DNA of 63,837 nucleotides, counting the filler, from Hausera hauseri (lineage: Eukaryota): assembly GCA_046269625.1 (NCBI GenBank). It is 12 parts of 12 records of this genome, joined end to end, with 100 filler letters (N's around TTAATTAATTAA, not from the genome) between each part and the next. Parts side by side here need not be neighbours in the genome. Positions count along the whole stretch, not along the records: positions 52,329 to 59,369 come from JBJURY010041777.1; 11 more parts are not named here. One strand, 5' to 3'. This document shows positions 6,176-59,369 of the stretch, piece after piece. The notes below the pieces were generated by a model that worked only from the letters and a program-made list of their open reading frames with translations, did not search any database and was not told the DNA's origin. Position numbers and translations under genes: made by a program. Position 1 is the stretch's first letter; every line of letters begins with the position of its first letter.

Positions 6176-6290
6176 AAGGGAAGATTGTAAAAGTGTGAGA
6201 TAACGTAAATTTTGGTTTGAAACAACATTCGTGTCTATATTCTTCTGCCTGCTGGAAGGGAATATTGTAGAAGTGTGAGATGACGTAAAT
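6176..6290. repeat. Imperfect 35-bp direct repeat (6176-6210 and 6256-6290)
   Basis: aagggaagattgtaaaagtgtgagataacgtaaat vs aagggaatattgtagaagtgtgagatgacgtaaat. Confidence 0.8.
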
Positions 6291-6329
6291 ATCTTTACAA
6301 AAGTTATTTGCAAGGACATTTTTTATTTG

Positions 6330-9265: not shown

Positions 9266-9365
9266 NNNNNNNNNNNNNNNNNNNNNNNNNNNNNNNNNNN
9301 NNNNNNNNNTTAATTAATTAANNNNNNNNNNNNNNNNNNNNNNNNNNNNNNNNNNNNNNNNNNNN

Positions 9366-10018: not shown

Positions 10019-10143
10019 ATATTCCTACTCCCAATGTGCTACAGTCTTCTGACGGACTGTGGATCGAAAATGCGTATTAGTATATTCTTTGTTGATCAAT
10101 ATACCACGCGTATGCGACTGCAGCAAAATATTCCCACAAAACG

Positions 10144-16700: not shown

Positions 16701-17901
16701 TCCATTTCTTCCTCACTAATGGGAAGTGGATAAATCTCGTTAATCTCGTTAGTTGATCCTAGACTTCGCGGTTCCGACAGGCGTGAGTGATCCGATTTCT
16801 AGTGTATTTATATTATGTCCTATGACGTCTTCCATGACGATGTTTGAACTTCCCGTTTCTTCAATACTCTCTCTAGTTACTTGTGAACGTTAACGACTCA
16901 TACGCTTTGCCTTAAATGAAGGGCTACGGCCTCTATTTTTCGTAATTTTAAGTATTAATGGCTCCATAAATTCCTTTTCTGCTGTGTCGTCATCAGTAGA
17001 CTTATCCACTTTTTCAACCGTGAACTCAGGCTCTGCATCTATGTCGACTGCTGTCGATGTGTCTGGTTTATCCGATGGTTTATTACTTGTCGGAACACTT
17101 ACGTGTCATATCGCCTCGCTTAGGTGCTATCGCATGCTCGTAATCAGTTTCTGGTTGTGCTAAACCATGATATACTTCTAGTAGTCTCAGCTTCTCTCCG
17201 TATTCTTTTCTAGCCATCAAAATTTGTGGATTAATAGATTCAGGCTGATCGTCTAGGAATTTCCGCAAATCTTGTATATCTATGATGGTACCTGTGTCTC
17301 CACGAACACCATACTTTGCTTCTAAATTGTAGTTAATTCTGATCGTGCTAGTCTTATTTGGCTCCGTAAATGAAGTGCTACGTGGGTTTGGACATGACCT
17401 TGAGATATGCCCCTCTTTACCGCAAGTAAAACAGACTAAATTCCCATTTCTACCAATTCTTTGTCGATCATCTTCGTTCACAGGTGACTTAGACCTATTT
17501 ATACTTTTATTATACTGGTTTGACACGCTTTGGGCATTATCTGCATTTCTTCGATTGTCACTATTTCGGTTATCGCCGTTTTGATTCGAGCCCTTATAAT
17601 ATCCTCTATTCTTATCCCAGTTAAAATCTGATCTGTTCGTATTAGTATAACTATGGCCTCCGCCATTCCTGTAACTACTATTATTATTTCGGTTCCCATA
17701 ATTCTTGTTACCCGTAAATCGTCTGTCATCTCTTCCACGATTGTCGTTCCGATTTCTGTCGTTGCGATCACTTCGATCATTATTTCTGTCGTTTCTATTG
17801 TTGTATCTGGCGTATCTGTCGAGTGCCATTTCTAAATCTTGAGCTAACTGTAGAGTTCGTTCAAAGTTTTCGGGTCTAGCCAAGATTAATTGTTTAACCA
17901 A
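13727..17901 (-). mobile_element. Retroelement Gag with CCHC zinc knuckle followed by a >1000-codon decayed extension (charged/coiled-coil segments, Ubl domain, AT-hook-like motif)
   Basis: RPENFERTLQLAQDLE (Gag capsid C-terminus-like), N/R/D-rich linker, CFTCGKEGHISRSC. A chain of co-oriented broken ORFs continues to the contig end with no protease or RT seen. Confidence 0.7.
14399..14611 (-). other. Ubiquitin-like domain (integral type, no terminal GG) inside the Gag extension
   Basis: MKVMVSS..EKECELTTYSYVRDVIEWL..GG...YRFYFRGRILDDMEQLIDVGIIPNETSRIVV aligns by eye with ubiquitin MQIFVKT..TITLEVEPSDTIENVKAKI..EG...[31 protein letters not shown]. Confidence 0.7.
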
Positions 17902-18308
17902 ATCTCGTGACCAAATACCATGGATTGAGTCGTCATCATGACATCTAGATCTTGCGGTGTTGCCTTTTCTGCGGCATCACGTTCCGCATCTGCTTTGGCT
18001 CTAGCCACATTTGCTATCCTCAATGTGTTTATATAACTATTAGCAAGTTCAACGCAAATGCGAACTGGGTTACTGATTCAACCCTCTGTTGCACTCTATT
18101 TTGAAATGCCATAAGTTTCTGTTGTGGAGTTACGGTCGGCAATAATTCGCGGTTTAACGCTCCTACCCGGGANNNNNNNNNNNNNNNNNNNNNNNNNNNN
18201 NNNNNNNNNNNNNNNNTTAATTAATTAANNNNNNNNNNNNNNNNNNNNNNNNNNNNNNNNNNNNNNNNNNNNAAATTAAAAAGTAATAGCCTGGAAAATC
18301 GCTGCATA

Positions 18309-21998: not shown

Positions 21999-24900
21999 AC
22001 AATACGGCGTCGAGGATATCTCTGCAAACCACTCACCCGGTGCCGAGTTCAACTCCACCAGCACAATCTACGACGTCGAAATCACCTCTGTCAAAATGTT
22101 TCTGTGAACAATAAACCTTCTAACCTGGAATTATTGTTTTCTATTACATTTGTACCAGTCGTTTTATTCGACTGGATTATAGTACTTGTACTATGCGGCC
22201 AATACAAGGGTTTTGCACAATACGAGAACATTAAAGTATAGTAATAATAATAAGTAGGATAATAGTTATATATTTCACATTTTAAAGTTACACAATTTGA
22301 TATTTTCTTTGTTAGATACACAAGACGGTAAATACATAATTATATGAAAAATATGCATTGTGCTTCTTGCCATTATACCATTATGGTTATGCGTAATTTT
22401 CGACACCCCTTCATGTACTTTAATTAATTTGTAAGTAGTCCTCAATTTAACAGTCCCATGAAAATGATTGGAAGAATAATCAACTTGTTTCCAATATACA
22501 AGTTCATAATTCTAGTTCATTGGGTTCGAATTCGACATAAAACATGTTTCTAAATTTTTCTTCGTAAAGAATGTTATTTTATGGGACGAAAATAAAGTCT
22601 TTTATCGAGTAAAGGTAAGGTATCAATAAATTATATAATAAATGTGGGTGCTGAAGCTAGAATGATATAAGGTATTATAATTTTTCTAGTTCATNNNNNN
22701 NNNNNNNNNNNNNNNNNNNNNNNNNNNNNNNNNNNNNNTTAATTAATTAANNNNNNNNNNNNNNNNNNNNNNNNNNNNNNNNNNNNNNNNNNNNACCGTT
22801 GTCTGGAGGAAGAGGGCCAACGATGTCAATATGCACGGACTCGAAACGCGATGTGCAGGGAAAGTGGAATAATGGTGGCTTTAAATGCATAGCTGTTTTG
22901 TATTTTTGGCATGCTACACACTCCTTAACCCATGCCTGCACATCAGAATGCATTAACGGCCATATTACCTGTCAATGGAGTAGACGAAAAGTGGCTTTAG
23001 CACCAGGATGGTGTAATGAATGCACGTGGTAAAATGCTTGCCTTTGCAATGAAGGTGCTAGAATTATTACTGAATGACCTAGTTTGGAGGTGTCTAAAGC
23101 CACGCCGTCAACGATTGTGCAAGATTGGAAAGACTTAAGCATGTCTTGAGGTGGCGGGTTCTGTTGAAGTTGTTCTTGCGTAAAGATCAGAGAAAAATTA
23201 ATCGAACTAACCGACCTCGATAAAAAATCAGCAACTAAATTGTTAACCCCGTTGATATGTTTAATATCGAAATTAAATGTCGACAAGTATGATATTTGTC
23301 GCTCTTGGCATGTGGAGGGGTGTTTCATGGCCATGATGTTAAATAAGGGTTTGTGATCAGCTTGTAGAGTGAAATGACGAGCGACAAGCTGGTGTGAAAA
23401 GTATTTTAAAGCGAGAACGATTGCCAATATTTCTCGATCAAACGTGGAATACCTGGTTTCCGGTGCGGTTAGTTTGCGAGAGAAAAATTCCAATGGTTGG
23501 TTTTCTCCCTTGTAGATTTGGTGTAGTACAGCGCCTACTGCGGTGGTTGAGGAGTCTGTAGTGAGGATAAGTTCTGCATCAGGTTTGGGAAAGGCTAGAA
23601 TATCTACGGTTTTGATGCCGTCACGTAGTTTGTCGAATTTGTCAACCAATTCAGGTGTTTATTGGATTGGTTGATGTTTTCTGCCGCCGCTTATGTGTGC
23701 GAATGGAGCTGTTAATTCCGAGAAATATGGCACATATTTATGTACAAAGTGGACTGTGCCAAGGAAGCTACGCATTTCGGTGGTCGTACGTGGCAATTGG
23801 ATGTTTTTTAAGAGCTTCGACTCGGTCTGATTGCGGAGAGTGGCCATCTGGTGTAATAACGTGGCCTAAAAAGTTAATGCGCTTTTTGAAAAATTGGCAT
23901 TTGTCAAAATTGATTTGTAGATTATGGTGGTGGAGACGTTGAAATATTGCACGAAGGTGTTCTTCCTGTTGTTTGTCCGAAGATGAAACGACTAAAATGT
24001 CGTCGATGTAAGGGTGTGCAAACGAGAAATCGAAAAGAATGGAGTCAATGTGCCGCTGAAAAGTTTATGCAACATTCTGCAAACCGAATGGCATAAATAG
24101 ATATTCGTATAAGCCAAAAGGAGTGGTTACTGCGGTTTTTTCAAAGTCTTCTGGTGCTACCGGTATTTTATTGTATGCTTTAGCTAGATCAATGTTTAAA
24201 TAGATGGTGGTTGAATTACGGCGATACAAAATATCCTTGATGAGTGGTAAAGGATATGCGTCCATGACAGTCAAGTTATTAAGCTGTCGGTAGTCACCGC
24301 ATGGTCTAAGGTTACCATCCTTTTTTGTACAACGTGTAACGGAGATGACCAAGAAGATTTGGAACGGCGTACTATGCCGGAACGTTCGAGCTCAAGAAAT
24401 TCGTCTTCTACGGCATGTCTTCGACAAGGTGACAGAGGCCGTATCTTTTGGCGCATTGGACGTGGGTGCTGTGTGACTATGTGGTGTGAAGTGCTGTTTG
24501 CGTGAGTAAAAGAACGGTCTTTTTTAAGTACGCGTGGACAAGATGTGTTGACGAACTGTTGTACAGTTGTAGGTAACTGTGAGAGATTTGGTGAAAGTGG
24601 TGGAACGGTTTGAGTGGTAGCTGATGCAATGTGTGAGTTGTTAGGTGATGTGCAATCAAGTGGTATTTGGTGTAAGATGGTTGAATTGAAGATGGTGTTG
24701 GATGAAGTTACTTCGCTGAATGAAACAATGTTAGTGGCAGTACCACACTTATCGACATCAAATCTCGATCGTATATCAATGTTATTGTTTAAAAATTTAC
24801 AAATATAATTATTATGAAAATTTGAATTAATCGTTGATTTTTTTAAGATTGATTTCCGCCCCACGGTCGACTGGGCGGTAGTCGAAACGCTATTTACATA

Positions 24901-26415
24901 TACAGAAATGTCGCCAACGGTGCCATTCCTCAAACACAGCTGGCTAAAGTCAACCAGTAAGTTATAGTGTGAGAGAAAGTCAGATCCTAGGATTGCCGAC
25001 TGGACGTTAGCGACTGTGAACGTCCAGCGGAAAGATGTAGAGAAATTTAATAATGTGAAAGACAGTGTAGCAGTGCCCGAGATGTGCAGCGGCTGGCCTA
25101 AAGCAGTATATAAAGGCTTAAGTTTGAATGGAGAATTTAGTGTAGGAAAGGTTTGCGGTAATAGAGAAATTGCGGCCCCTTTATCAATAAGGAAGTCAAG
25201 AGATTGAGTTGTAGGGGCAGTGATTTCAGCCTTTAGAGTAAAGACTGCAAAAGAAATGTGTCGGCGGTCAGAATGTGAAAGAGTGCCTTTGCCAGAGTTT
25301 GCCGTGACCTCTGGCGGCGAAGTTAGTTTTTTTGGAAAGATGAACTGGAACGACTGTGAGAAGTGAAGGCAGTACATCCGTCGTTCGTGTTGAATTTGAA
25401 GGTACAGCCAGGAATACATTTACATGCTTAATTTTTGAATCTCTCGTGGTAAATGCAAACAACGGTGTCGGAGGAAAACTTCTGGTTATAAAATTGGCAA
25501 CCTAGGCAGAATTTCTGAGCATTTTTGTTGAATCTGCTGTTGTAGTAGGAGATCGATAAACGCGCAGGCGATGGTGAGCGGTTTCGTGGCGTAGAGCGGG
25601 TACGGGAAACGGCAAAACCCCCTCGTCGGGACAAAGACAATTCATTTATTTTATTATTTATGTTGTTGATAACTATAATATTTAATATTATAATATTTTC
25701 AGCTCGTAGCTGATTACGCTGCAGTTCTATGGACGTGTTAGTTGTTTGTATATCGTTAGCAGCAACTGCTGCTGAAACTACTGGTTGCGAATTTGTGTAT
25801 GACATCGAATGTCCTATCGGCCAATTTGGCCAATTTTTCAATCTGCGTTGAGTCTCCAACCACGGTAAGAAGGGCCCGGATTTGGATAGTTAGAGCATTC
25901 AGAAAATAATAACGTAAATCCGGGTTATGTTCCTTAGTTACTCCCAGAGTATGCAAGTGTGCTAATGAGGTGCGTAAGAAGTCACTTGGTTTTTCTGTAC
26001 CTATTGCATTTTCGTTAAAAAACGCTACATTATGGAGTCAGTTGAAGGTTCGGTCTGTTTTACGACAGCGTCGAATAATTGGGTATAAGGGTCAGGATGT
26101 TGGAAGATGTCCAGTAAGTTTTGATTGAGGCCTTTATGGCGTTTGGAAGAAGATAGAGCAAGCTGTGGGCTTTCGATAAGGTGTCTGTTATGCCATTAGA
26201 TTGTAACCAGAGTTGATGAATATGAAGCCACGTTTTACTGGACTTTTCATTATCTATAAAGCATTCAGTGCAGTGTGGAGTATTGGTAGGATGTTTATGG
26301 GGATTTGCATCGATTGAAGAAAGTGGAGGGTTTGGTTTAGAGTAGTAGAGAATGGGTATTGACTTTTTGTGGTGGTGGTTGTATCCGTGGTGTTGATAGT
26401 TGGTGGGGAATTCAT

Positions 26416-26625
26416 TCCACCACGGATATGGAGATGTATGTTGAAGCAAGCGTGATTTGAAAAGGAATGTAAAATTTCCTTGAGGTGTATGATGGTACCG
26501 TGATGGCTAAGAAAGAAGTCTGAAGAACTAAGGATAGAAGAAGGTGGGTTTGAAAGGTGGGGATATGCGGGTGTGTAGTATGGAGGGTATATATGTGAAT
26601 GTTGTTATAAAAAAAGAAAATGGAG
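26416..26625 (-). other. Ubiquitin-like domain ending in IRGG, N-terminal to Gag (one frameshift)
   Basis: Manual translation SIFFFYNNIHIYTLH...(frameshift)...SDFFLSHHGTIIHLKEILHSFSNHACFNIHLHIRGG|MNSPP, with an ATG at 26415-26413 directly after GG. Confidence 0.65.
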
Positions 26626-26719
26626 GTGGGGCAGTGATGGGCTTGGGGGCGTGATATAGAGCCGACATCGAAGGTGCCCGCGACCGACCGGCGCGTGGTT
26701 GGCGGTCGGGACCTCCACC

Positions 26720-26741
26720 CCGGCAGGTCTGGCACCAAAAT
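26720..26741 (-). promoter_or_regulatory. Putative LTR 3' end (..CCCTGCA) and primer-binding site (TGGTGCCAGA..)
   Basis: Minus strand reads GCACCCTGCA-TTT-TGGTGCCAGACC, the CA/spacer/TGG arrangement, just upstream of Ubl-gag. The tRNA was not identified. Confidence 0.5.
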
Positions 26742-27081
26742 GCAGGGTGCCCGATTTTAAAGTTTCAGTCGGAAGCATTGTGTCTGAAAACTTGATAAAC
26801 GGAGAGAAATTCAATGCAGATGTACGCGTAAAACCAATACTTATATTTGTATTGTTGTAAACAAATTTTGACGATTCTGCTAGAGGGGTCGTGATTGACG
26901 GATGTACTGATGTATCGCCGCTCATAATAGATGTAGTCAGAGGTCCATATTCCTCATATGTTGTTATAATATTATCGAATANNNNNNNNNNNNNNNNNNN
27001 NNNNNNNNNNNNNNNNNNNNNNNNNTTAATTAATTAANNNNNNNNNNNNNNNNNNNNNNNNNNNNNNNNNNNNNNNNNNNN

Positions 27082-27345
27082 CTCTAATATTTCTATCTTA
27101 CTAAGATCTTCGTCAGAAATCATTGGTCGGGCAGATATTTTGGCACGAACTAAGCGATGTCTACTGATATTTTTGAACTACTCACACACGATATATTGTA
27201 CTCTAGGTATATGCGTGTACCTAGAGCACAACATATTTTGTGTGAGAGGTTCAAAAAGATGAATAGGCATAGCTTATTTTGTGCCGAAATATCTGCCCGA
27301 CCAATAATTTCTGACGAAGATCTTAGTAAGATAGAAATATTAGAG
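27082..27345. repeat. Loop-less imperfect palindrome, 264 bp, centred at 27213/27214; left arm cut by the contig end
   Basis: 27082-27159 is the near reverse complement of 27268-27345. Inner arms also pair (tttttgaactactcacacac / tgtgtgagaggttcaaaaa; ctctaggta / tacctagag). Confidence 0.9.
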
Positions 27346-27679
27346 CGTTTAGCAAAGAACGCCAGTCGAATTCTGCAACATCGTTGTCCTCCATAAGACA
27401 TGTATGTATAGTTATAACCTCATATCTTGCTCCTAAATAACCCTACTGTTTACTTCATTTTACCAATACAAACACACACTATAAAAATGTTTATCGTTAT
27501 GCCAAAGTTATATTGTTATGAAATAAATGTGTTATGAAATTAGTTGGCCTTATCCTACATAGTAGTTACATAGTTTTACTTGGCCTTTTCCCACATTACT
27601 TGATCAAGAAAACAACACGATATTTCTACACAAGATTTATTAAGCAAAGAATAACAATATGTAAATATTTACAATGACA

Positions 27680-30600
27680 CATATCAGTGAGGTAGTGTCT
27701 GGATTCCATCATTCAGAATCTGACTCCTGTCACCAATCTAATCTAGGCTGTTCTTCTGTAATGTTACTGTTTCAATGTTATGATACCTGGACTGGATCCT
27801 TCGCATCTCTGATATGATGTGAGTCTGCTCATGCACAACTCTCATATAATCCGCAAAAGTAATATTCTTGGCTAAGGTAGTTCTATAAATTCCCTTATCT
27901 CTCTTTTTGATCTGACCACATACATCAATGTCATACATTATGGACCTAAGATATACAAATTTCGAGATGATTGCCCCATTAAACTTATATTTGAATTTCC
28001 CAGGGACTTTCTTGTTGGTAATTGAATAGTTGGAATGATCCTTCAGATAGTCAGACGTATACACATGTAGAGCCAACTTAGTAAAGTCTTCATAAATGTC
28101 CTCATTATGGATCTGATAGATGAAACTATCAGTATCCATACACATCAACTGCATAAACTTGAACTTGGGGACCATGATGTCATCATGGAATCTGCACATC
28201 AAGGTCTTTGATAGATCCAATATCGCTATATCCACATACATGGGCTTGTTGAATACCAGTGCTGTTTTCAGCATATGAATGCTGACCAAGTTCTCAGCAT
28301 ATATGGTGCTGCTGTGGAAATTGAGCTTGGCAATAAGCTTCTTCGTCCGCTTCCACTCATAGACCAGTTCGATGTTGAACCTGTTGTGGATATTCTCCAT
28401 GGTCTTGGCAAAAAAACTCTGTTGTTGTACAGCTTGAACTGGTCCTTCTCAAAGTCGTTTTTGGAATTTTCCACAACTTCGTATTGAGATGTATGTAGGG
28501 CTGCAACGATTTATACTGGCTGAACTGCAGGGCCCGATGGATCTTAGTAATGCGGAGTCCATTCCTGACCGCCTGCTGGAGATTGATGTAGTGGAATACA
28601 TACCTCTCCCTATTATCCAGATGGCAGAGCAGCTTTCTATGATTTCCATTGGCGGAAGCTTACTTTCAGGGGAAAAAAGCAGCTGCTCATATCTTTGTAC
28701 ATAGAAGCCGGATATTTTATATCTACCTCCAGTATGTATCCGGTATCTCCAGTGGGATCCAGGTCCAGTATAAGGATGTTATTAGGATGCTCGACACACT
28801 TGAATTTATAATATGGCAATGCGGAGCTCATTGCCCATCCACATAGGTTGTTGGCATCCATGTATGATATATATGAAGATTCATTGGATGGATCAAACTG
28901 GGTCATATGCTTGTTGTTGGCCTCGTCATACCGGTAAATTTCCTGGCATATTCCGCCTCTAATGTCTCTCTCAATTATGAGATCATGTCGTTTTCCTTTA
29001 TTATCTGCAGACTAATACCTCTATATCTCAGCATAGCGGCCAAACTAATCCCTGGAGCTGTAAAGAAATGAGCTGGATCTAATGCATAGCTCTTCAACGT
29101 AACATCCCCGAAACTCTCAAAGACATCCGTCAGCACAGCACGTCCGTCGTGAGGTATATGTCGCTGTATTCTCCTAATGTTCGGCATTGAAATGCATCCC
29201 AGACGTTTTGAGCATACTGGTAGTCCTATTATTGATATCGAAGTTAGAGACTATACTGCAAAAGTCCTTCTGCGCCGGCAATGAAGTATCATCCAGTGTT
29301 TTCCGTAAAGTTATATAGTCATAGGGAAACACGTCTTTCCTCATGACAAGATCAAATACAGTGGGATAGAACGGCTTCGTTTCCTTGAGTCCTTCTGCAC
29401 GGAGGTTCTTCACTAAACTGTCAAGTGAATGCAACATGAAACGGAAACTACCTATGAAACGTAGCCTGATTTTTCCAATATGCTGGGTAAATGTGTTTCA
29501 TTTTTCCTCACTATTAGGGATCACATCAATGTTTCCTTCAATGCTGCCCAGTTCCCGAACAACGAAATAGGAATCATAGCTACTAAGATTATAAAACACT
29601 ACAAGCACATATGTACATGTTTTGCAGCGAAGATTGCAGTTGTTGCATGCTGCGCCCCGATATTTGCCTGTAAAATGGAAATGATTCCTAACTTTATGAT
29701 TCTCCTTGGTGAATGATTTGGAGCACAAGTAACATGCTGTTGCCTTGCGCCATTCTTCTTCTTGCTGCTTCGACATGCTCATTGTATCCTTATGCTGCTG
29801 CTGCATATCTCCATTCCTATGAGCCATATCTTCAAGTACTTTCATGAAATGTGCTGCTGCATCTGGACCTCTAAATAGATATGGTTCACTGTCCAGTCCT
29901 TTGGCATATATGCAATATGACGAGAGTTCATTATATTGGTATGCCGTTGTGCTGCTATGTTGGGGATTAGGACTGAAACTCTGAATTGCACGCAGAATAG
30001 ACTCAAAGTCGCAATAGATAACTATTGGGACCTTGATCTTCTTCTCGAACTCCCTGAATTCAATGTAATCCTCCTTGCGAAATTCCGGCCTGATACAATA
30101 ATTGTTGTTGCAGTACATTTTGTGCTCTTTCAGCTTTAATACAACTACGTCGCCGCTGAAATGGGACAAGAATCGTTTACATATTTCTATTTGTTCATTA
30201 TGTTTTGTAATTTGTGATCTGACTTGTCGCTCAAAGTCTTGGATTCAAACATAATGCTTCTTTTCTCCATCGTCTAGCAGGAGCAGGTCCATATGATCTT
30301 CGAATTCAGTATCGCATATCTGCAGGGGATAAAATTTATCATCCTTTTTCAATCCCAAGTTATTGATGGACATGTTGACTTTTCCAAATTTTTAACTGCA
30401 TCTATGAATGGAGGGAACTTGATACATTGGAAGTAATAGTTGTGCTGCAGTTCATTATATAACCAAACTCGATCTACTGCATGATTTTGATCCCGTACGA
30501 GTTTACATAAAATGGCATACATGAAACACTTGTTGTCATCATTATAGACATTGACACACGCTTTTTTATTAGCGATCCCATCAGGGAGCTGAATATATGA

Positions 30601-31760
30601 ACTGCCCTGCATGGGAGAGTACTTGTAAACATACACAATCAATCTCTTAATTGTTGCCAGTGTCCAACCGCTCTTCGTATCCTGGCTCTCCCCGGCTTCA
30701 CGGATCAGCTTCTCGTGCACCTATTGTATCCATTTTGCTATATTGGTGTTTTTGAATGTTGGTCTATTTTTGGTCTTAAAGGCCATATTGTATTCTTCGC
30801 CATCAACATTGACGTATGTGGCCTCCAGTTTCGTATTCACGTTAAGGGCTTTGAGCTCAGCCATGTTGTCCTTAAGAATCCCCTCTGTCTAGTCCTTCGT
30901 GTATAAGAGGAAATCTTGGAGGGTTGTTTGACCAGTTGCCTCAATAACATATCTGCGGCATTTTTTCTTTATTGCTGCCGCATCAAATGGCTGCTGTCTT
31001 TGACTTTTTGATGGAGACAATGCGTCTGATGTGGCTGTGCCCGATGCTGATGCGCATGATGCGGCTGCGTACGAGGCGGCTGCGCGCTTTAATTCTCCAA
31101 TATGCTGCGTAGCTGCTGCACCAGATCCAGCAGCATAATATGAGGCAGAATACTGCAGAGCATTATACTGTGAAGCAGATGCATCAAAATTATGTTGGTC
31201 ATTAAAAATGGCCTTCTTTGACTTTGATGCGAAGTGACTCAAATGATGTTTGTGATGATAATAGAACTGTGTGTAATCTGCGCCGCATACAGTCTCACAT
31301 CCTGGGCATATATAATACAGGAACCTATTAAATTTATATCCATAAAAGCTCCTTATGGCATTATGACAGTTTTGAGGGTTGTGTATTGCACATGTGCAAT
31401 ACACGTATGAACTGCATCTTTGATTTTGCTTAGGCATGGAAGTAATTATTTGCATAGTGGTATTGAATATTTGTTTTTTCGACTTGTAAAGGGAATCAGG
31501 TGTTGTTTATGAGCATTGTAAAAGTCATCATATTTGGTCTGGCACACTACCTCACATGTGGAGCATATATAATACTCAGCCCTGTTGTATAGATAGCTAA
31601 AGTATTTCTGCATAACGTTGTGGCAATTTCCAGGCTCGTGGATTTTTGACAAGCACTGTTTGTGTAGATTACACATCTAAAAATCAGCCAATTATTTGAG
31701 GAGCACAAATAAAACTCTCGCCATTCGTAGAAGTGATTTAGAAAATAATGAAGCATATCA
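27680..31760 (-). pseudogene. Near full-length disabled protein-primed PolB of Polinton/adintovirus type, with endonuclease VII-like insert and N-terminal Cys/His repeats
   Basis: SGW..., GSSYIQLP...NKKACVNV...KCFMYAIL; IYCDFES (Exo I); CYLC...KVRNHFHFTGKYRGAACNNCNL (EndoVII-like); YNLSSYD (Exo II); FPYDY; YMDANNLCGWAM; FKLYNN; MDTDS. Many stops and frameshifts. Confidence 0.92.
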
Positions 31761-48900: not shown

Positions 48901-51254
48901 TTTGAAGTTGGATATGAGGCATTGAAGACCACTCTCAACTTCGTGGTGCATTTATCGGGTCTGAAAACACCATGGTGGGGTAAATAATATGCGGCTGAGG
49001 GTTTATAACTTTCGTGAACTTCCTCCATGTGGCCCAACTCTTCATACTCTTTCATGAACGACGTATACAGTCCTAAGAGCTCAGATGATTTTGATATACG
49101 TTTCCACAAACAATTTAAATTTCGTAAAGCTGACGATCTGGATTCTCCTAAGCAAGTTGGATCCTCCTTGAATGGCATTTCTACTACATATTTACCCGAA
49201 CTATCTCTTGTATGTGTGTCCTTAAAATGCTCTTCGCAAATGATTTCCTCTTTAGTTTTCGTAGCCTCCGTATCTTCCAGATACGAATTCTCTATCTCCC
49301 AGAATTTTCTCATTGATAAATTTAAATCATCTTCCCTATTACTAATCATTCCACAATGTGTTACGTCTACTGAGTTAAAATCACAAAGAGCACCTCCTAC
49401 TATATAACCAAACAAAGAATCTTGGAATATTAAATTGGAATTTGGAAGGCGTATTTGTTCAGATTTTAAAATTTCAAAAAAACATTCTGTTCCTATCAAC
49501 ATATCTACCTTTCGAGGTCTGTTGAATTCAGGGTCCGCAAGTTTCATGTTTTCTGGTACTTCAAAAGTTGTAAAATCGAAATATTTTCTTGGGACAACAT
49601 CATTTATTTTTGGAACAACCAAAAATTCTAACGGTCTAGTGTAACCTTCTTTATTTGAGATGACCGTTTTTACCTTAACATTTATTACTAAAGATGTTTC
49701 GTTTAAACATGAAACTGCCACATTTATTCTTTCTTTCTTTATTCCTAACATATTTGCAAAGTCACGTGATAGAAAACAACTTTCACTACCGTTATCGCAT
49801 AAAGCTCTACATGGCAAATAATCACCCTGACAATTCTTAACATATACCATTGCAGTGGATAAAATCGTTATTTTTGTTTTTGCCTGAGAATTATTTATAG
49901 AGTTTCCTATAAACTGATTATTAGTGCGAGCATTCAAACTCTCAAAATGTTTTGCATCAGCATTTAAATCGGTGTTTGAAGTTATAGGCCATGTGGCATC
50001 ACTCCTTTTCTCTGTGGTCGAACATTTTCTGTCTGGCGCCTCTACGTCTGGGAGGAGTATAGTTTTGGATTCCTGCTGTATGTGTAGGAGCGTATGATGC
50101 CGTTTCCCACAGATTGCGCAAGAATTATTAGAGTTACATGATCGTACAGAATGATTTGCGCTTGATAAGCAATTAAAACAGATTTTATGTTTCTTTACAA
50201 GATCCAGTCGTTCGTTTACATTCAGTTTTTGGAATGAGATACACTTATATAAATTATGAAACTCAGATTTACAACAAAAGCACTTTAGATTATAATTTTT
50301 TACACTAGTAGTAAGTGTAGTCGACTTCTGGGTTTGACGCGGCTGATATTTATTTGTTGAACACGTGATGTAATTAGGATTCTTTGAAGCCTGTATTGTT
50401 CGAGAGTAATCTTTTAGGAACGAAATAAGTGCGGAAATCTTCGGTAGCTCATCCCTTTTCGATTCCCGTTCCCACCAAAGTTTCGTAGATGAATCTAGTT
50501 TTTGTAACAACACATAAGCCATTAAAGTTTCTGAGAAGCCATCTATTTTTTGTTCTAACAACTCTAAAGATCTTATGCACTCATTAACAGTATCAACCAA
50601 TTTCAAAATTGAATATGGGTTCTCAGTTTGAACAGGAGGTATTGTCATAAATCGTTTTAAATGAGCAAAAACTTGATCTCGTGTATTGGAATATCTCTCT
50701 TCTAAGAGATTCCATGCGATCTCGTAATTCGCGTCAGAAATTGAAATAGCGTGAATTATTCTCGAAGCGTCACCATGCAATGACAGTTTAAGATAAGATA
50801 ATTTTTGTGAGGCAGACAAATGTTTATTATTATGAATACTTGAACGAAACAAATCTCTAAAACTCAACCAGTCCTGAATATTACCGCTAAATGACGGTAA
50901 ATTGAGCTTAGGTAATCGAACATTTTCGGCACTATTATTTACTTCGGTTTTAGACAAACCAGAACTGTTAACGGTTACTCGCGAGCTTTTACTCTTGACC
51001 AAAATCCATAGTTGATCAATATTTTCTTGAACGGTTTGCTGTTCACTAATAAATTTATCTAGTTCTGTTTCTTCACAAATGCCAAAAAGTTCATCAAAGG
51101 GTTGAGAACATTCTCGTTCAAATTTACCACATTTGTTTTCATACAATTGCAATTTAACATTATCTAGATCGCCTTTCTCTACTTCATTGGTAGCTTTCGT
51201 AATGCTAGCTTTAAGGACTCTTTTTTTTGTTAAAAGACGATCCATTTTATACAA
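45978..51254 (-). CDS. BEL/Pao Gag-Pol polyprotein, intact 1758 aa
   Basis: LPKLNLPSFSG (BEL Gag), three Cys/His knuckles, RALCDNGS (PR), YYLPHHGV/KLRVVFNAS/YMDD (RT), HGFSDA...SIPRLELCAA (RH), GVDFAGP/SDNATTF/GGLWEA (IN), LTPGHFLIG. Confidence 0.97.
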   Translation of the reverse strand: MYKMDRLLTKKRVLKASITKATNEVEKGDLDNVKLQLYENKCGKFERECSQPFDELFGICEETELDKFISEQQTVQENIDQLWILVKSKSSRVTVNSSGLSKTEVNNSAENVRLPKLNLPSFSGNIQDWLSFRDLFRSSIHNNKHLSASQKLSYLKLSLHGDASRIIHAISISDANYEIAWNLLEERYSNTRDQVFAHLKRFMTIPPVQTENPYSILKLVDTVNECIRSLELLEQKIDGFSETLMAYVLLQKLDSSTKLWWERESKRDELPKISALISFLKDYSRTIQASKNPNYITCSTNKYQPRQTQKSTTLTTSVKNYNLKCFCCKSEFHNLYKCISFQKLNVNERLDLVKKHKICFNCLSSANHSVRSCNSNNSCAICGKRHHTLLHIQQESKTILLPDVEAPDRKCSTTEKRSDATWPITSNTDLNADAKHFESLNARTNNQFIGNSINNSQAKTKITILSTAMVYVKNCQGDYLPCRALCDNGSESCFLSRDFANMLGIKKERINVAVSCLNETSLVINVKVKTVISNKEGYTRPLEFLVVPKINDVVPRKYFDFTTFEVPENMKLADPEFNRPRKVDMLIGTECFFEILKSEQIRLPNSNLIFQDSLFGYIVGGALCDFNSVDVTHCGMISNREDDLNLSMRKFWEIENSYLEDTEATKTKEEIICEEHFKDTHTRDSSGKYVVEMPFKEDPTCLGESRSSALRNLNCLWKRISKSSELLGLYTSFMKEYEELGHMEEVHESYKPSAAYYLPHHGVFRPDKCTTKLRVVFNASYPTSNGLSLNSLQLNGGVVQDDLFSIMLRFRTYRYAYTADIEKMYRMILIKPEQRDLQRILWKNCETDAVKTYRFNTITYGTTSAPFLATRALKQLAIDEESKFPLAAPIVLNSFYMDDVLSGAQDQSTAKELVCQLTELLHKGGMKLHKWCTNEPQILEGISNNAREYSFSCPNETKVLGILWRTETDSFSFKVSIFERDSNTKRSVLSDIARIFDPLGVVGPVVLKAKIFMQRLWLLAIDWNDSLPYKENKEWHEFVVSLKTMNNVLIKRCILIQDYVHVHIHGFSDACEDGYGAAIYVKSISVTGEIAVNLLCSKSRVAPLKKLSIPRLELCAAVLLAQLLQKLLKCLQVNISDVYLWSDSTIVLAWIRNCSQALKTFVANRVHHIRTLTDSYQWRHVRSSDNPADLVSRGIDPDKILHNNLWWHGPSFLHQTELPVDVIDNSSMDREEYFCELKGHPKSKQETDQTVTVSLTVYFNADSFFSEIVNCSNKYAKILRVLAFVYRFCHNVKCPTGRLVGPLTSKEITFAENSLVSYIQRLYFQGEVHNLEKGRCVSVKSKLKSLNVFLDDNKVLRVGGRLKHAAVSYLQKYQAVLPGNARFTRLIVEYVHNKYFHAGPQALLSYVRQKFWPISGRSLCRKVAHDCVVCVKAKPVTSEQIMGDLPPERVKPTFPFNVTGVDFAGPFSVKKNSHRKAVFSKIYVAVFVCFVTKALHLEMVSDLTSEAFIASLKRFFSRRGKSLRIFSDNATTFVGANSELKRLHKLVRIPDKNLAYYLSEEGVDWSFIPPRAPNFGGLWEASIKSFKYHLKRIVGNAHFTYQEFETIIVQVEAILNSRPLVPLSSDGDDFEVLTPGHFLIGRPITALAEPELIDVKDTRLSRWQRTTKVVQSIWRLWSQSYLSTLQQRTKWMFQKSNVQLGALVLIKDERLPVNKWSLGRIIGLCPGSDNRIRVVEVKTAKGIFKRSISKICILPVKF

Positions 51255-51420
51255 ATTTTCACAAAACAGAAGAAAAGAAGGCTCACCTTGTATTCAGGAA
51301 ATGCAGATTCACAACAGTTAATCCATGAGAGCAGACACAGGCAGAGTACATAATTGTCAGTGAACACGACGATTTCAACCATAGGACGATGATTCTTTCT
51401 CCGGCTCTGACGGCCAAGAA

Positions 51421-52328: not shown

Positions 52329-55300
52329 GGATGGCGTGTTGCGCCAACCGAGTAGGACAAAAGGAAGAATTGAGGTCCAGTTATAATTGTTGTTTGCCAG
52401 GATTTCTAAGGAAATCTTCATGGTGCGATGAAACCTCTCGAGAAGACCATTTGCTTGGAGATGGTACAGCCTCGTATGGAGATGGGCTATCCCCAAGTGC
52501 TTTACAAGAGATTTGAAAATATTAGCTTCAAATTGCGGACCCTGGTCCGTTATGATGTGACGTGTTGAGCCAAAACGGCTGACCCATATCTTGATAAATG
52601 CATCTGCTACTGAGTCAGTGTTGGTTAATCGAAGAGGAACGGCTTCCGGCCAGCAAGAAGCGCGATCCATCATGGATAGGATACATTGATAACCATTGTC
52701 GGAAGGTAGAGGATCCACAAGATCCAAATGCACAGTTTCAAAACGAGAAGTGCAATGGAAGTGGTAGAGTGGTAGTTTGAGTTGTTTATGAACCTTGTAT
52801 TTTTGACATGCTACACATCTCTTGAACCAGATCTATACATTGACACGCATAGTTTGCCATACAACGTGGCGTTGCAGTAAACGAAATATGGCTTTTGAAC
52901 CCGTATGATGAAGAGAGTAAAAGTGATTGAAAGCTGTCTTTTGTAGCGATGGAGCAAGAATGATTTTTTTGTTGGTCGAGTTGAAAGTGTCATAAGCGAT
53001 TCAATCGATGATTTCAACAGATTTAAAAGCTTGTAGAATATCAGATGATAGCTAATTGCTTCTCAGGATCTCAGAGCAGAAAATTGGTTGAACTGTAATT
53101 GAGTTAACCGACCGCGAAAAAAAGTCTGCTACTAAATTTTCGGTGCCTGAAATGTATTTCATGGAAAAACTAAATGTCGACAAGTATGATATCTGTCGTT
53201 CTTGTCTGGGTGATGACTGTTTTAACGTCATCATATGAAGTAGTGGCTTATTGTCGGTTTGGATGGTAAATTGACGTAACAAAAGCAAGTGCTTGAAATG
53301 CTTTACCGCTGGAACTACAGCCAAGAGTTTACAATTGAATGTTGATTATCGGCTTTCTGATTGCGTGAGCTTTCGGGAATAGAATTCTAATGGTTCATCG
53401 ACGATATTGTATATTTGGTGTAATATCGCACCAGTTGCTGTGGTTGAGGCATCGGTAGTTAATATTAGTTCATCGTTTGGTTTTCGAAAGGCCAAGATTT
53501 CTACAGTTCTCAGGCCTTCACGAAGGCGATCAAATTGGTTTACTAGATCGGGAGTCCAATGAATTAATTGTCTTTTCATCGCAGATGAGAGGTATACAAA
53601 AGATGCCGTTAGTTCGGAGCAGTGTGGCACATATTTGTGTACGAAATGCAATGTCCCTGAAACACTCTTCATATCGGTAGTAGTAGTAGTTGGCAACGTC
53701 ATATTTTTTAATTGTTGTAAGCAATCAGGCTGAGGCGAATGACCTTCGGGAGTAATTATGTGGCCTAGGAAGTTGACGCATTTCTTGAAGAAATTGCATT
53801 TGGCGAAATTAATTTGCAGGTTGCTTTGATGCAATTTGTGGAAGATAATTCTAAGGTGCTCATGATGTTGTTTGATGGAGCTAGAAGCGACTAATATGTC
53901 ATCTATGTATGGGTGAACAAAATCAAGATCAGAAAGAATGGTGTCAATGTGGCGCTGAAAGGTCTGAGATGCGCTACGAAGGCCGAAACGCATGAAGATG
54001 TATTCATAAAGACCAAATGGTGTGATAACAGCAGTTTTTGGAATGTCATCAGGGGCAACAGGAATTTGATGGTAGGCTTTGTGCATATCAATGGTAGAAT
54101 AGGTATTGATTTTGTTAAGGCTATGAAACATAACTTTAATGAGTGGTAGTGGATAGGCATCTGTAATAGTTAAATTGTTTAATTGTCGATAGTCGCCACA
54201 TGACCTACAGGTATTATCTTTCTTTACCACTACATAAAGAGGGGAAGCCCACGGAGAATTCGATCTGCGAATGATGCAAGACCTTTCCAGTTCATTAAAT
54301 TCCTGTTCCACAGCTTTACGTCTGCATGGTGACAAAGGTCTGACCTTTTGTTTGATCGGCCTCTGATGTTCTGTTACTATGTGATGATAAGTTATAGATG
54401 GAGGTTTGAAGCTGACGTCCCTTTTAACTATGCGAAAGCAAGACGTTGTGACGTATGATTTAAGATTGAAGTCCAGAGACAAGAATGCATGAGGCATATC
54501 ATTAGAGAGAACAGCTCCAGGGATTGACGAAAAGCAACTGGCATCGCTACTGTCAACGCATAATGTGGATTTTTGTTTTAAAATAGATTTATTATTTCGT
54601 TCATAAATGAAATATTACCGACTTTATCGGAAGTTTTTTTATAGATGGCGAAGCGTTCAACATATTCACAGATGAGTGTAATGAATTGCTCACTAAATTG
54701 TCTACGAGACACATGTTTGGAGTTGCAATCGACTTCCTGCTTAAAAGACAGCCGTATTTGCAATCGACCAATAGATCATGTGCGGCAAGGAAATCTGAGT
54801 TTATTATGGGAGATTTAATATTGGCCACGTGGAACTTCCAGACAAACTTATCTGGCAAGTTGGCAAAAGTGAAAGGCAGTTCCGCGGTTCCTGAAACATG
54901 CAACGGTTGTCCACTGGCAGTGAAAAGCGGAGGACAGGAAATTAATGTGGATTAAGGGGTGAAGGACAACATAAGGAGCGAAAAGGTAGCTCCTGAATCT
55001 ATTAGGAATTCGATATGTGAGGTATCTCTGCATAACAGTACAGCTTTCAACAGAATGACTGCCGTGGCGGTGTTGAAACGGCCAGAAGATTGAGCGATAT
55101 TACCTGCACCAGAATATGCCGTAAAATCTGGCGCCATTATTAGTTTTTTGAAGGTTTTGGAGAAAAGCAAAAAAAGGAAGAAAAGCGAGAAGATTTGTCG
55201 CTGTAATGTTTTCAACCAGGCACGCATGATCTAGCCTGTGACTGGAACTTATTGTGGTAAATACAAATAGGGTTGTCCACAGCGTACCGTTCACTGTAGA

Positions 55301-56600
55301 ACCGACAACCCAAAAGGCACTTCTTAGCATCTTTTCAAAATCGCGTATGATAGAAACAAGTCATGCATCCGCCAGGTGAAATGGATGCAGCAGAGTGTTT
55401 GGAAATGCTTCTTTCTATTGAAGGCCTGGTTTCACTTCGTCAAGGCCCATTAAGATTATTTAGTTGGATAGTAATGGCCGAAATCGACTGCTGTAACTTG
55501 TCAAACTGTTGCTGCATTATTTGCAGTTGTTCAGTAAAATATGTTGTGTCTATACTTGGAGCACATGTGGTTGCAGCCGCAATAGGGAGAGAACTGTTGG
55601 TATGAAGGATCTCAAAGGATTTGTCAGCCATTATTGCCAGTTTTTTGATAGCAGTGGACTCCTCGACAATGGTGAGTAAGGCTCTGATTGAGATGGGCAA
55701 AGACGATAAAAAATTACGGCGAATTAAATCCGCGTTATTTGTAGGTGTCACTTCTAGCGGGCTGAGCTGCAGAATGGCCGTTTGAAGAAAGTCAGATGGC
55801 TTTTGATTTCCTATCGCGTGGTCATTAAAATACTTTTGTATTATATTGTCAATCGAAGGATCCGTGACATGCAGTACTGCTTCACAGAGTGTCTCGTAAG
55901 GTGTCGAAGATTCTAGCAGCTCGGAGATATTAATAATCTGCTGCTTGACGTTGGAAGGCAGAAGAATTAAGGGGCTATTGGCTCGCACAAAAGAATCAGT
56001 GATGTTGTTCGATTTTAGCCACTGCTGGTGGAATTGGAGCCATTGTTTGCTGGAGTTGCTTTTGTCGAGGAAAAATTCCACACACGGTAAATTTAATGAC
56101 CCTCGTGACTGTTGGGAATGTGGCAAACGACAGACGTTGCCTGTATTCGTGGATTTATCATCCGAGAAGGATGGATTTGAGTACGATCCTCCCCGAAGGC
56201 GAAAATGGAGCACCAGATGAATGATGGGACGTTCGTGGCATGTTAAATGCAAAAGGGAGTCGGAAGGATGTATTATAAGCCCTTTATATGTGAAATAGAA
56301 ATTAGAAGCGTTATACAATGAGGACAAAGCATTATATAAGAACTGTACTGTCTCGTTGAGTGGAGCTTTTAAGGTTGTAATATGTTGATTGTAGCTAAAG
56401 ACCGGGAAAGATAATTGTAATGAGGTCGTCCCAGGGAAACGATGAAATGCACGAGGCTTGGGCGATTACCTTTTGGGTTAAGAAGCGGTTCGAGCGCACA
56501 GCAGGGATGGCGGTGACAAGTACTGAATGTGATGAAAGAATATCTAAGGTTTTTGAGCTCAAAAGGTTTTCAAAATTGAGACTGGTGTTTGTCATCAAAG
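52329..56600 (-). mobile_element. Decayed Gypsy (CsRn1-like): Ubl-gag, PR, RT, RH, IN
   Basis: IEFLIDSGATFSLL (PR), SNSPWASPL...CGDYRQLN...HPYIDDIL (RT), TTDASTT (RH), HLDLVDPLP...WPEAVPL...ITDQGPQFE...NGLLERFHR (IN). Confidence 0.95.
56187..56430 (-). other. Ubiquitin-like domain ending in RLRGG, in frame with Gag
   Basis: YNQHITTLKAPLNETVQFLYNALSSLYNASNFYFTYKGLIIHPSDSLLHLTCHERPIIHLVLHFRLRGG|SYSNP... continues without a stop into Gag (ORF 55440-56327). RLRGG is at 56201-56187. Confidence 0.8.
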
Positions 56601-56699
56601 ATATGTAAAAGCGCAAAAAATGGCCAAACTGGTGGGCGCAAACAAGTGAAAGAAATTTCACCCACCTGTGTCTAGATGCCTCTGATGATGAAGTGTCTG

Positions 56700-59369
56700 C
56701 CGGTCGATCAGTGAGGTAGCTGTCAACTTGCAGTACGTCCATAAAATCAATACGGTGGTCTGGTCCAGAAAGTCCAGTCCAACACATGTCAGCGAGCGGA
56801 GATTGGACAGACAGACACGTGTTTCTGGTGAATTGCACATTGGGAAACCGCTGGGACTGATTCTTTTTTTATTATTAAGGCCACTTTGGTCTTGCCACGA
56901 ACAAGTTGCTGCTAACTGACTGGCTCGCCGCCACAACTGAACATCCTCTTTTCGACTGGCAGCTGGATAAAAAACAATGTTATTCACTGCTTGAATTAGT
57001 TCAAATTGGACAACACATTTATCGAGCAATGATGCAAATGTGTGAATTTGATTATCATTTTGTTTACCCCCATCTTCTGAATCAGATTTGTCTTTTGAAG
57101 TATTTGGCTTCCATGTTAACAATTGATGAGTAGACAACTCGAAAACATCTGTTAACAAAATACATGCTTTCCCCCAAATATCGGAACTGAACTTATCATT
57201 CGATATAATTACTGTTTCCAGACAACTTGAGCCGGACCTAACTAACTGCTCGTGATCTTGTAAACAACACTATTTCAGTTTATTGAGCAAGTTATTCAGA
57301 AGAACTGTGTAAAACGTCGTAATACTGCGAAAATACATCAACAACAGCATAAAGCGTATGATTGCAAGTGGTATTTAACCATTCACGTCTGTCATTCAAA
57401 GGAAAATATTTGGCTGAAGCATGCGTTGGTCCGGTAATACTACTCGCTGCCGGTACATGTTGAAGTACCCGAAAGACTAAATTAAAATTATCCTGCCACA
57501 AACGAGACCTGAATCCACTCCCGTAACCTTTTATTATTACAAAGAATACTGTCAAGCCTCTCGTACGAACGTCAAGTTTGCAGTTGCTAATCACTCTAAA
57601 AAGTTCGCATAGAACTGGCATCCAGCCTTTTATCCAAATTTTATCGTCATCATCAATTTTATCATATGACAAAACCGTGCCGGATTTCTCTATAGGACTA
57701 AGGAAACTTTCTTGTGACGAAATTTCTTTGAACAAATGACCTTGCTCTTCAATTAATCCGGCACACTGTCGAATCAATCGTATAGCTTCCATGTTAATGT
57801 CCGGAAAATTTGTGTCACAAGCAAATTGAAGTCTTAAAGACGTCTTTCACAATAAAAGACAAAGTTTCGAACGCCATTTTAACGATTAGTTCCTGCTCTA
57901 ATAATGCACCACTAGCAGCCCGTAAGAACACCATGAGAACATTAGTCGATTCAGACCGAATGTTGCTCCAGAGATTGTACAAATTGTGCGACACAACGAA
58001 CAACCATGTCTTCCACATTTTTCGATAAATTTTCCTTACCTTCCGTAACACTGACAAATGGCCTAAAAAAGTTTTTTGAAAATGGAAATTGGGGAATTCA
58101 CCCTTTTCAACAGATTCCCCTGCTAATTGCCGTAACGAATCCATAGCGAATATTGCAACTTCTTCATTAGATGACCTACCAGCATCTGTAAAATGTTCAC
58201 CGATTATTTGCCACATGCGAGACCATTGAAGACGTATTCGTCCCATATTGTAATAAGATATTTCTACCAGTTTTTGTAAACTGAATATTCGAGGCTGAGG
58301 TAGAGAAAGTCCATCTTTGCTCACCTGGCATAGGGCTTTGACAAAGTCAACAATCGCGTCTATCTGGTCGGACAGAACCAGTAAAAACTTTATCAACTGC
58401 TACGATAACACTTTGAGAACCGGTTTTACCCATAACTTTTTGAAGCAAGGCGATGTTCTTTTGTATATCAGCTAATAAAGTTGTTAAATTAACTGTAGAG
58501 ATCCCATCCACATCCGAGAAGCTTGATTTAGAAGTTTTTGATACCTGGTTGCCAATATATTGTATACCATCGGACTTCGTAATAGTTTTTGGATACCAGC
58601 ATTAAAAATCTTTGAAAATATTTGTGTTGCACGACTCTCTTGAAGCACTTTGGCGGTCCAGTACTACAGATCAATTGAGCTCATTCCGTTGTTCCATTAT
58701 TTTTATCTACCAACGTGTCTTCGTCAATTCTTTCTGACACATCAGCAATACTTTCGTTTATTTCCATCACTTCCGCTGTAGTTTCTTTTTCCATTTTATT
58801 AACGATGGAATTGAGCATTTGAGTAAGAGTTGCTTTAGCAGTTGTTTGGTTAACCTGATCTCTGCTAGCTAGATAAATGCCATAGCACGTGCGGACCATG
58901 TTAATCAGATTATTTTCATGAACTTCTAATGTTGGATTGATCACAACTGTAAGAATACCTTTAATGATTTGCAATTGTACAGTATCACCTGATTGACCGT
59001 TTTGACGACATTCACAAATGTGAGTAACAACTCGTTCAATCGATTGCTCTTTTTTGTTTCCATACACAGCATTGTTGGAAATGTGGCCAGATGCAATAAA
59101 CTTGTGTACACAGTCCAGAGCAACAACAACGATGTTTTGTGATTTTGAAGTAAACGCTAATTCGAATGATTCAAAATATTTTGCATTAGACATCAAATCA
59201 TCGACTTCGGAATTTACTACTGGAAGCACAGAACCGATGCCATTTCCAAAAACTGATTTGCCATCGGATTGAGTTTTATTTTCATAAGGGAACTCTGGTG
59301 TACATGTGACCAGAAGATTGCTTACGTTACTATTGACAGATACCGAATTTAAAGTAAAATCTGTGTACA
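56700..59369 (-). pseudogene. ARFGEF1: Brefeldin A-inhibited ARF-GEF (BIG1/BIG2 type), intronless, disabled, missing the HUS-Sec7-HDS1 block
   Basis: DCB: KYFESFELA..SKS..IVVVALDCVHKFI, VQLQIIKGILT, NQTTAKATLTQML. HDS: GSQSVIVAVDKVF, FSLQKLVEISYYNMGRIRLQWSR, MEAIRLIR, CKLDVRTRGLTVFF, EWLNTTCNH, KCVVQFELIQ. BIG1 vs BIG2 not resolved. Confidence 0.9.

Follow-up and report, generated by a model that had tools for sequence, protein, structure and literature searches.

Why would a Gypsy retrotransposon place a ubiquitin-like domain (Ubl), complete with a ubiquitin-type RLRGG tail, ahead of its Gag? The question is raised by a minus-strand Gypsy element (the focal copy) on contig 52329-59369 of the 63,837-nucleotide stretch of Hausera hauseri DNA analysed here (the window; assembly GCA_046269625.1), which consists of short contigs with N spacers between them. 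By translation, a stop-to-stop frame of 341 amino acids at 56465-55440 on the minus strand includes the segments quoted in a first-pass annotation of this DNA, and from IHLVLHFRLRGG onward it contains no stop before Gag, as that annotation had stated of an RLRGG-ended Ubl running in frame into Gag. The first methionine of the frame occurs only at residue ~280. The Ubl itself occupies 56187-56420 (minus strand, 78 amino acids) and has no initiator methionine. Its RLRGG tail (56187-56201), followed by serine, is a predicted cut site for deubiquitinases (DUBs), judged from the translation and from relatives, and the disordered linker behind it (56094-56186; pLDDT below 50 over residues 93-124) is the predicted N-terminus of mature Gag.

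Single-sequence comparisons identify the focal Ubl only faintly. PF00240 is its sole Pfam match (E 0.13, profile positions 8-71 of 72) and a phmmer search of PDB sequences with the domain alone returned no ubiquitin, results that favour reading it as an artefact, that is, as a chance likeness or a one-off ubiquitin pseudogene beside a Gag. AlphaFold2 run on the focal sequence alone gave a poor model (pLDDT 48). Supplied with a 40-row alignment, it returned a beta-beta-alpha-beta-beta-alpha-beta order over residues 17-88 (pLDDT 74-94 over 21-90), followed by the disordered linker, a helical capsid and a long helix. Foldseek placed ISG15 and ubiquitin on top (TM ~0.8, rmsd 2 Å) and VIA gave a Z of 11.6 to ubiquitin, so the beta-grasp fold expected by the first-pass annotation was recovered, in a model that is not independent of homology because the alignment included near-canonical ubiquitins. 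In the ESM Atlas, the named neighbours of the focal Ubl are ubiquitin/SUMO-like clusters (0.90-0.92), with unnamed clusters ranking higher (0.92-0.93). A profile of the relatives' Ubls built without the focal one ranks it first in a six-frame search of the window (E 4e-13).

The window holds two further family members. One, at 4405-9265, has 85-92% DNA identity to the focal copy in pol and is cut inside Gag; the other, at 22795-26981, is a more divergent second element (64-67% DNA identity) with a Ubl ending in HIRGG ahead of its Gag (26416-26624, minus strand, with frameshifts), identified by pattern and profile search. The region 26257-26604 of this second element ranks next after the focal Ubl in the profile search (E 2e-5), and the GG-tail pattern, which was written after both occurrences were seen, turns up twice in the window, compared with 0.03 times on average across 60 simulated ones. 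In the contigs of run X1, which contain 0.41 of the sampled words, the summed contig depth (not a copy number) is 26-56 over the upstream flank, 478-791 over the leader region that precedes the Ubl, ~2,500 over the Ubl and 4,000-17,000 over Gag-pol, which places both Ubl and leader inside the repeat. The artefact reading is almost certainly wrong, since the same architecture recurs in the second window element, in more than 30 independent proteins and at 14 loci examined as DNA, and the Ubl bin rises far above the flank in run X1. The focal Ubl with its RLRGG ahead of Gag is a genuine, lineage-wide observation.

The breadth of the lineage emerged from a phmmer search of 1.84 billion representatives, in which at least 150 relatives were taken from 232 matches; the query included the focal Ubl and so favours Ubl-bearing matches. 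Among the matches listed together with P0002, a ubiquitin-type xxGG tail ends the pre-capsid stretch in 31 of the 34 proteins whose capsid is preceded by 100 residues or more, and in 36 of the 46 for which this figure is 60 or more (these 36 include one false positive, P0054). Capsids of the Ubl-bearing relatives are ~22-69% identical to the focal capsid, and PF00240 was found in 14 of 66 related proteins scanned with Pfam among the matches listed, usually beside DUF7041. Word-based homolog searches, which were insensitive (2, 4 and 13 matches), contributed four further relatives. The predicted sequences of the named relatives (a sponge, a wasp) contained no Ubl, and the architecture was found in 0 of 64 candidate stretches in a metagenome scan with the window protein and in 0 of 17 viral contigs. 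The Ubls range from near-canonical (P0103; L001, L003, L004) to undetectable by Pfam (L005, L010). At the near-canonical end, P0103 shares 57 of 76 positions with ubiquitin (~75%, counted by hand) and PF00240 matches P0103/L001, L003 and L004 at E 2e-20 to 4e-26, which supports descent from ubiquitin; at the other, fold and tail persist at less than 25% identity to ubiquitin. L010 retains the GG tail and P0125 lacks it. At the DNA level, the Ubl-GG-Gag frame is present in 14 of 17 loci, with a primer-binding site (PBS) also visible in 10 of those 14, and five relatives (L001, L003, L005, L013, L014) have LTR, PBS and polypurine tract. L013 additionally holds two nearly identical element copies head to tail at 1-8349 (a 3.4 kb repeat, 99.85%).

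Codon counting, with small numbers and many pairs saturated, gave a dN/dS of 0.15-0.50 for the Ubl in the seven pairs where it was estimable, and, again on small numbers, 0.03-0.16 for the capsid in five pairs. The family behaviour anticipated by the first-pass annotation, a Ubl-GG in frame with Gag evolving at dN/dS below 1, is borne out in this material, and the comparisons support a GG-ended Ubl fused in frame to Gag as a lineage-wide trait under purifying selection. In seven predicted proteins (P0003, P0167, P0019, P0020, P0033, P0080, P0143), pieces of host genes are joined to Ubl-Gag: Rrp44/CNOT1, a methyltransferase, histone H2A, SCC3, 5'-nucleotidase, SelO/dynein and RING. These are probably gene-caller chimeras, with host mRNA capture near elements also possible; as gene callers fuse Ubl-Gag frames to upstream host genes such as CNOT1, histone H2A and the methyltransferase, the frames lie hidden in databases as chimeras.

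The rest of the focal copy shows what the Ubl is attached to. Behind the linker, AlphaFold places a helical capsid region of divergent DUF7041 type (55593-56090, minus strand; PF23055 is matched by relatives and not by the focal copy) and a long helix, probably a coiled coil (55452-55547, minus strand), which lies ahead of a stop at 55442-55440. In the structure searches, the capsid part had no clear fold match, the result lists being filled by the Ubl. The first-pass annotation ended Gag at 55440, where the stop proves to be premature: the zinc knuckles and the true end of Gag lie beyond it, at 55358-55140. Translation of this part reveals two tandem CHCC knuckles (55212-55358, minus strand), broken by stops at 55337 and 55214, and gag ends at an A-run heptamer plus stop (55140-55151, minus strand), probably a -1 frameshift site into pol. 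All nine loci checked have pol in the -1 frame after this junction, and the three window copies share the junction; Gag-Pol would therefore carry the Ubl cassette too. Pol itself (52329-55230, minus strand; Pfam and translation) encodes protease, reverse transcriptase (RT), RNase H and integrase, and survives in pieces, with stops and frameshifts, up to the contig end that cuts it. Searches for an LTR and a PBS in the focal copy found neither, the copy being 5'-truncated.

The pol order PR-RT-RH-IN with a YxDD motif is that of Ty3/Gypsy. An assignment to the CsRn1 clade, implied in the first-pass annotation, holds for one diagnostic and fails for the other. That clade is described as having a CX2HX9CX3C Gag motif and a Trp-type PBS (PMC2582038). 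The CHCC motif is present here, doubled in the larger of the two Ubl-bearing groups distinguished below (group A, in all complete relatives counted) and single in the smaller (group B), whereas the PBS is of Leu type in all 10 related loci that have one. The family is therefore not filed as CsRn1. It shares with CsRn1, PwRn1 and AgCR the knuckle motif, the DUF7041-type helical Gag, the PR-RT-RH-IN order and a -1 gag/pol overlap, the last as in nine AgCR elements (PMC2582038), and departs from that clade in its two tandem knuckles (group A), its Leu-type PBS, an ORF1 opened in the LTR and the ubiquitin cassette; the word ubiquitin is absent from the main text of that paper. A Leu-type PBS is also found in Steamer (PMC8905726). 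The focal RT is 47-49% identical to that of Ubl loci and 35-48% identical, over differing lengths, to that of three plain DUF7041 elements.

Where does the frame that carries the Ubl begin? The first-pass annotation began Gag with the Ubl, and the relatives contradict this. Of 43 full-length Ubls, just one has methionine at ubiquitin position 1, a residue that is gone even from four of the five near-canonical copies. Taking the PBS as an independent reference point, the stretch between it and the Ubl contains no stop in the Gag frame at 9 of the 10 loci that have a PBS (62-166 codons; shuffle P 0-0.004 each). In these nine the frame continues without a stop for another 37-129 codons into the LTR and includes one or more ATGs there in every case, the other frames being mostly interrupted by stops. 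These 10 loci represent ~7 families of one subfamily, with capsids ~30% identical to the focal one; among the closest kin of the focal element, evidence for an LTR start comes only from the second window element. There, a frame in phase with the GG is open from the LTR through a PBS-like site at 26737 (26608-26979, minus strand; ATGs at 26925 and 26778), the site having 3 mismatches in 12 to the relatives' PBS and LTR, PBS and polypurine tract being only partly recognisable. In five loci with a defined LTR, an ATG lies near the end of the AT-rich part. The sequence comparisons indicate that ORF1 starts not with the Ubl but in the LTR, the Ubl being internal to this longer frame.

The leaders so defined are 124-247 residues long and unconserved, and four of four scanned had no Pfam match. 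Different elements read the PBS in all three frames; it is therefore the frame, not the peptide, that is kept. In the best pair, L007/L014, dN/dS is 0.29 over the post-PBS leader and 0.82, near neutral, over the LTR part, the ATG is kept, and indels preserve the overall frame. The near-neutral LTR part counts against the LTR-initiated precursor proposed below. A membrane anchor in the leader, as in MLV glyco-Gag, was considered and rejected, as hydropathy did not exceed shuffles in any of nine leaders. Some translated leaders carry short tandem duplications that keep the frame open, some of them inside the LTR (L001 1119-1230, L003 1306-1473, L005 2315-2488, L012 472-637), and long overlapping second-phase open frames cover the leader or the 3' end of gag in L007 (97-1726), L014 (2733-3005) and L013 (1734-2300).

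In the focal copy, the corresponding region is open in a different phase. An upstream frame of 157 codons (56398-56868, minus strand; methionines at 56742 and 56595) overlaps the start of the Ubl in another frame; over 56762-56427 (112 codons), stops number seven in the Ubl frame, five in the second and none in the third, the chance of any open frame being 0.018. It has no Pfam match at E 0.01 and, from the comparison with relatives, is probably the remains of a translated leader, whose phase implies a frameshift near the leader/Ubl junction. Length variants occur near this junction in the run X1 contigs, and L011, the tenth PBS locus, likewise has the open stretch one frame off.

These broken leaders bear on a reading in which Gag starts at its own downstream or non-AUG codon and the leader-Ubl is a regulatory upstream frame or a relic of a captured ubiquitin mRNA. 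The frame is interrupted in the focal copy and in L011, many related predicted proteins (98 of 163) start no more than 60 residues from the capsid, and in 8 of 50 members methionine follows GG directly, where Gag could possibly start, which counts against the model that we prefer. Against such a start, the other 42 of 50 have no methionine after GG and the focal frame reaches residue ~280 before its first one; in L001 and L006, the LTR ATG is the sole in-frame ATG between the first ATG of the frame and GG; and fold and tail kept at such low identity are unlike a relic. We consider this reading quite improbable.

A model that joins the observed fold, architecture, LTR-open frame of relatives, purifying selection and residue bias after GG (below) would run as follows. 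Translation would start at a putative AUG inside the 5' LTR and pass through the PBS and the packaging leader, which need merely stay stop-free, giving an ORF1 precursor with an LTR-initiated leader, a ubiquitin-derived domain ending in GG, and Gag, with Gag-Pol made by -1 frameshifting. A host ubiquitin-specific protease (USP) would recognise the beta-grasp and the R-L-x-G-G tail and cut after GG; leader and Ubl would be discarded, and Gag and Gag-Pol would gain a defined, stable N-terminus with no need for a gag-adjacent AUG. We judge it reasonably probable that the family makes such a precursor, is cut by a USP-type enzyme, sheds the leader and sets a stable Gag N-terminus in this way, and put at the same level the reading of the focal copy as a decayed Gypsy (Metaviridae-type) LTR retrotransposon with an ORF1 of this kind. 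That a host DUB cuts at GG seems more probable still.

The residue after GG points to such a cut. Fifty members remained after 10 near-duplicates were dropped; GG is invariant among them because they were chosen for having it. The next residue is Ser in 20, Met in 8, Asn in 6, Gly, Ala and Thr in 4 each, and otherwise Asp, Val, Gln or Lys. Proline, which blocks DUB cleavage at this position, occurs in 0 of 50 against 11.8% in the linker background (P 0.002), as a DUB-processed fusion requires; a primary N-degron residue occurs in 1 of 50 against 24.7% (P 1e-5), and a small residue or Met in 41 of 50 against 37% (P 1e-10), all three P values overstating independence because the members are related. 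The bias at this position resembles that of a newly made N-terminus, such as a cut by a host DUB would leave.

The same data weigh on the proposal that the Ubl remains attached to Gag, or that the element's aspartic protease alone removes it, and that it adjusts the amount of Gag as an aid to folding, a degron or a tag for trafficking. Retroviral-type proteases favour hydrophobic residues at the cut, which counts against removal by the element's own enzyme, and an uncut precursor would leave a variable leader of more than 120 residues on every capsid subunit. The Ubl fold is conserved, the element does encode a protease, and engineered ubiquitin-Gag fusions route Gag to the proteasome (PMC3914991), all of which speak for such a tag. 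A DUB cut predicts the pattern observed, an invariant GG that is never followed by Pro and hardly ever by a destabilising residue, and we regard a retained tag as improbable.

A second question is whether the cut, if it takes place, serves to make Gag or to free the Ubl. The first-pass annotation had proposed the release of a divergent Ubl with an exposed GG, to be conjugated or to act as a decoy. As the LTR-initiated frame extends upstream of the Ubl, a cut after GG would release the leader still joined to the Ubl rather than a free modifier. Among 38 diverged Ubls, the hydrophobic core is kept and R72 and L73 are retained in 27 and 28, whereas the position of I44 is T, S or C in 29, so that the I44 binding patch is lost, R42 is mostly Tyr, and no more than 19 have R or K at position 74; G47 is kept in 20 and K48 in 18. 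A core and R72/L73 kept while the I44 surface is lost fit a domain retained for recognition and cutting, not signalling, and the changed I44 position and often non-basic position 74 leave the conjugation and decoy roles weakly supported. A position 74 that is often non-basic also counts against the precursor model.

In its fullest form, that alternative accepts cleavage and holds that it serves to free a leader-Ubl, which would be joined through its exposed GG to proteins of the host or the element, or would act as a decoy for ubiquitin enzymes. The retention of R72, G47 and K48, the recurrence of near-canonical ubiquitin on separate branches, a Ubl evolving faster than the capsid as a conflict protein might, and the conjugation of Fubi itself to a few substrates (PMC10611586) all suit it. 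The state of positions 44, 42 and 74, the 124-247 unconserved residues borne by the released piece, and a dN/dS below 1 in every estimable Ubl pair speak against it, and we think it doubtful, to about the degree of the retained tag. The precursor model, in which leader and Ubl are shed, remains our preferred reading.

How did ubiquitin enter these elements? In a FastTree capsid tree of 163 rows, from which near-duplicates, a chimera, a repetitive protein, L003 and short matches were left out, Ubl-bearers fall into the large group A (tandem knuckles, including the focal element) and the small, well-supported group B (single CHCC knuckle), which sits among plain DUF7041 Gags. An AU test (46 rows, 29 versus 17, on a quick tree) rejected one common origin for all capsids that bear a Ubl (p 0.0006), with the groups named only after the first tree had been seen. 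Ubiquitin was probably captured more than once, and P0080 may represent a third origin. In one subfamily, the Ubls of elements whose capsids all share 68-69% identity with that of L004 are either 62% or 23% identical to the L004 Ubl, and in a 10-row RT tree a diverged-Ubl element is nested among near-canonical ones. The Ubl evolves faster than the capsid, yet near-canonical ubiquitin occurs inside a deep radiation, from which we infer fresh capture or swapping. The broadest statement of this history is that CHCC-type Gypsy elements took up host ubiquitin on at least two occasions and, within a lineage, exchanged it for fresh copies, using it as an internal host-cleaved linker in an ORF1 that starts in the LTR and translates through PBS and packaging leader, with a host deubiquitinase as the first maturation protease of Gag; we hold this to be somewhat favoured and no more.

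The closest working analogues are the host fusions FUBI-eS30 (FAU) and SDE2. Fubi is 36% identical to ubiquitin, Fubi and the SDE2 Ubl are removed by USPs (USP36/USP16 and USP5, respectively), and Fubi cleavage needs the GG (PMC10611586, PMC8354635, PMC13572447). These proteins share with the family a divergent beta-grasp with a GG end ahead of a functional protein, USP release being predicted here; unlike them, host genes with an N-terminal Ubl, the present Ubl is internal, resides in a mobile element behind a variable leader and was apparently re-captured. Transposons of the Ginger, Helitron and Mutator types carry their own OTU, Ulp1 or C19 proteases (PMC2836005), and these, like Burro (PMC6431247), tap the ubiquitin system by encoding enzymes or adaptors, whereas Ubl-Gag encodes a substrate tag. 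Pfam found no Ubl protease in the pol of the Ubl-Gag element. Pestivirus (BVDV) polyproteins contain ubiquitin or Ubl inserts as internal host-protease cut sites that make a new N-terminus, sporadically and in RNA-virus isolates. The captured ubiquitin is similarly internal here, with a predicted cut, and it is fixed in a deep lineage of retrotransposons, where it precedes the capsid protein. In the yeast Copia element Ty1, GAG starts in the LTR and the PBS lies inside the coding region, the N-terminal segment is kept and there is no Ubl. ORF1 of the Ubl family is likewise open from within the 5' LTR and across the PBS, in a Gypsy element and with a Ubl. Ubiquitin is also reportedly fused to some protist L1 proteins; a literature look-up for such a fusion found nothing. 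A natural Ubl-Gag retrotransposon was absent from the literature matches listed and from the available text of two transposable-element reviews (PMC6431247, PMC5718144), while PMC2836005, as far as its available text goes, covers only element-encoded proteases and no Ubl-Gag; annotation in Repbase, Dfam or GyDB is possible. The architecture is apparently undescribed for such elements.

Gag processing in retroelements is usually credited to the element's own protease. If the precursor model is right, the first cut here would be made by the host ubiquitin machinery, tying particle assembly to host DUBs and offering a possible host control point, and the family would represent a third answer to the problem of translating Gag past a long structured leader, namely to translate the leader and then cut it off. 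The Ubl series, from a 75%-identical ubiquitin to less than 25% with the tail intact, is a ready panel for DUB specificity, and its dozens of diverged members would, on the same condition, reveal what DUB cutting needs once signalling surfaces are free to decay.

Several other features of the window were recorded. A degenerate, apparently intron-less BIG1/Sec7-family fragment (57292-59367, minus strand) lies directly upstream of the focal element; it has DCB and HDS domains with no Sec7 domain between them, and several variant contigs in run X1. A by-eye idea that 56880-56760 is a scrap of BEL integrase was unsupported on checking and was dropped. A BEL/Pao element with one intact 1771-amino-acid frame occupies 45978-51293 (minus strand); elements of this type are associated with animals, and its presence points to an animal source. 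On contig 13727-18172, a decayed multi-ORF element in which no RT was seen carries a Gag-like region with a CCHC knuckle (17086-17976) and, downstream of that region, an unrelated weak ubiquitin-like frame (14300-14662, minus strand; PF00240 E 0.039, no GG tail). A KDEL receptor (PF00810) in a single uninterrupted frame at 10147-10842 (minus strand) is a possible retrocopy or intron-poor host gene. Polinton-like pieces, identified by eye with Pfam matches to endonuclease VII and rve, lie at 27082-31506 and 41348-45699, and a 128-nucleotide inverted repeat (27082-27345) sits at a contig end.
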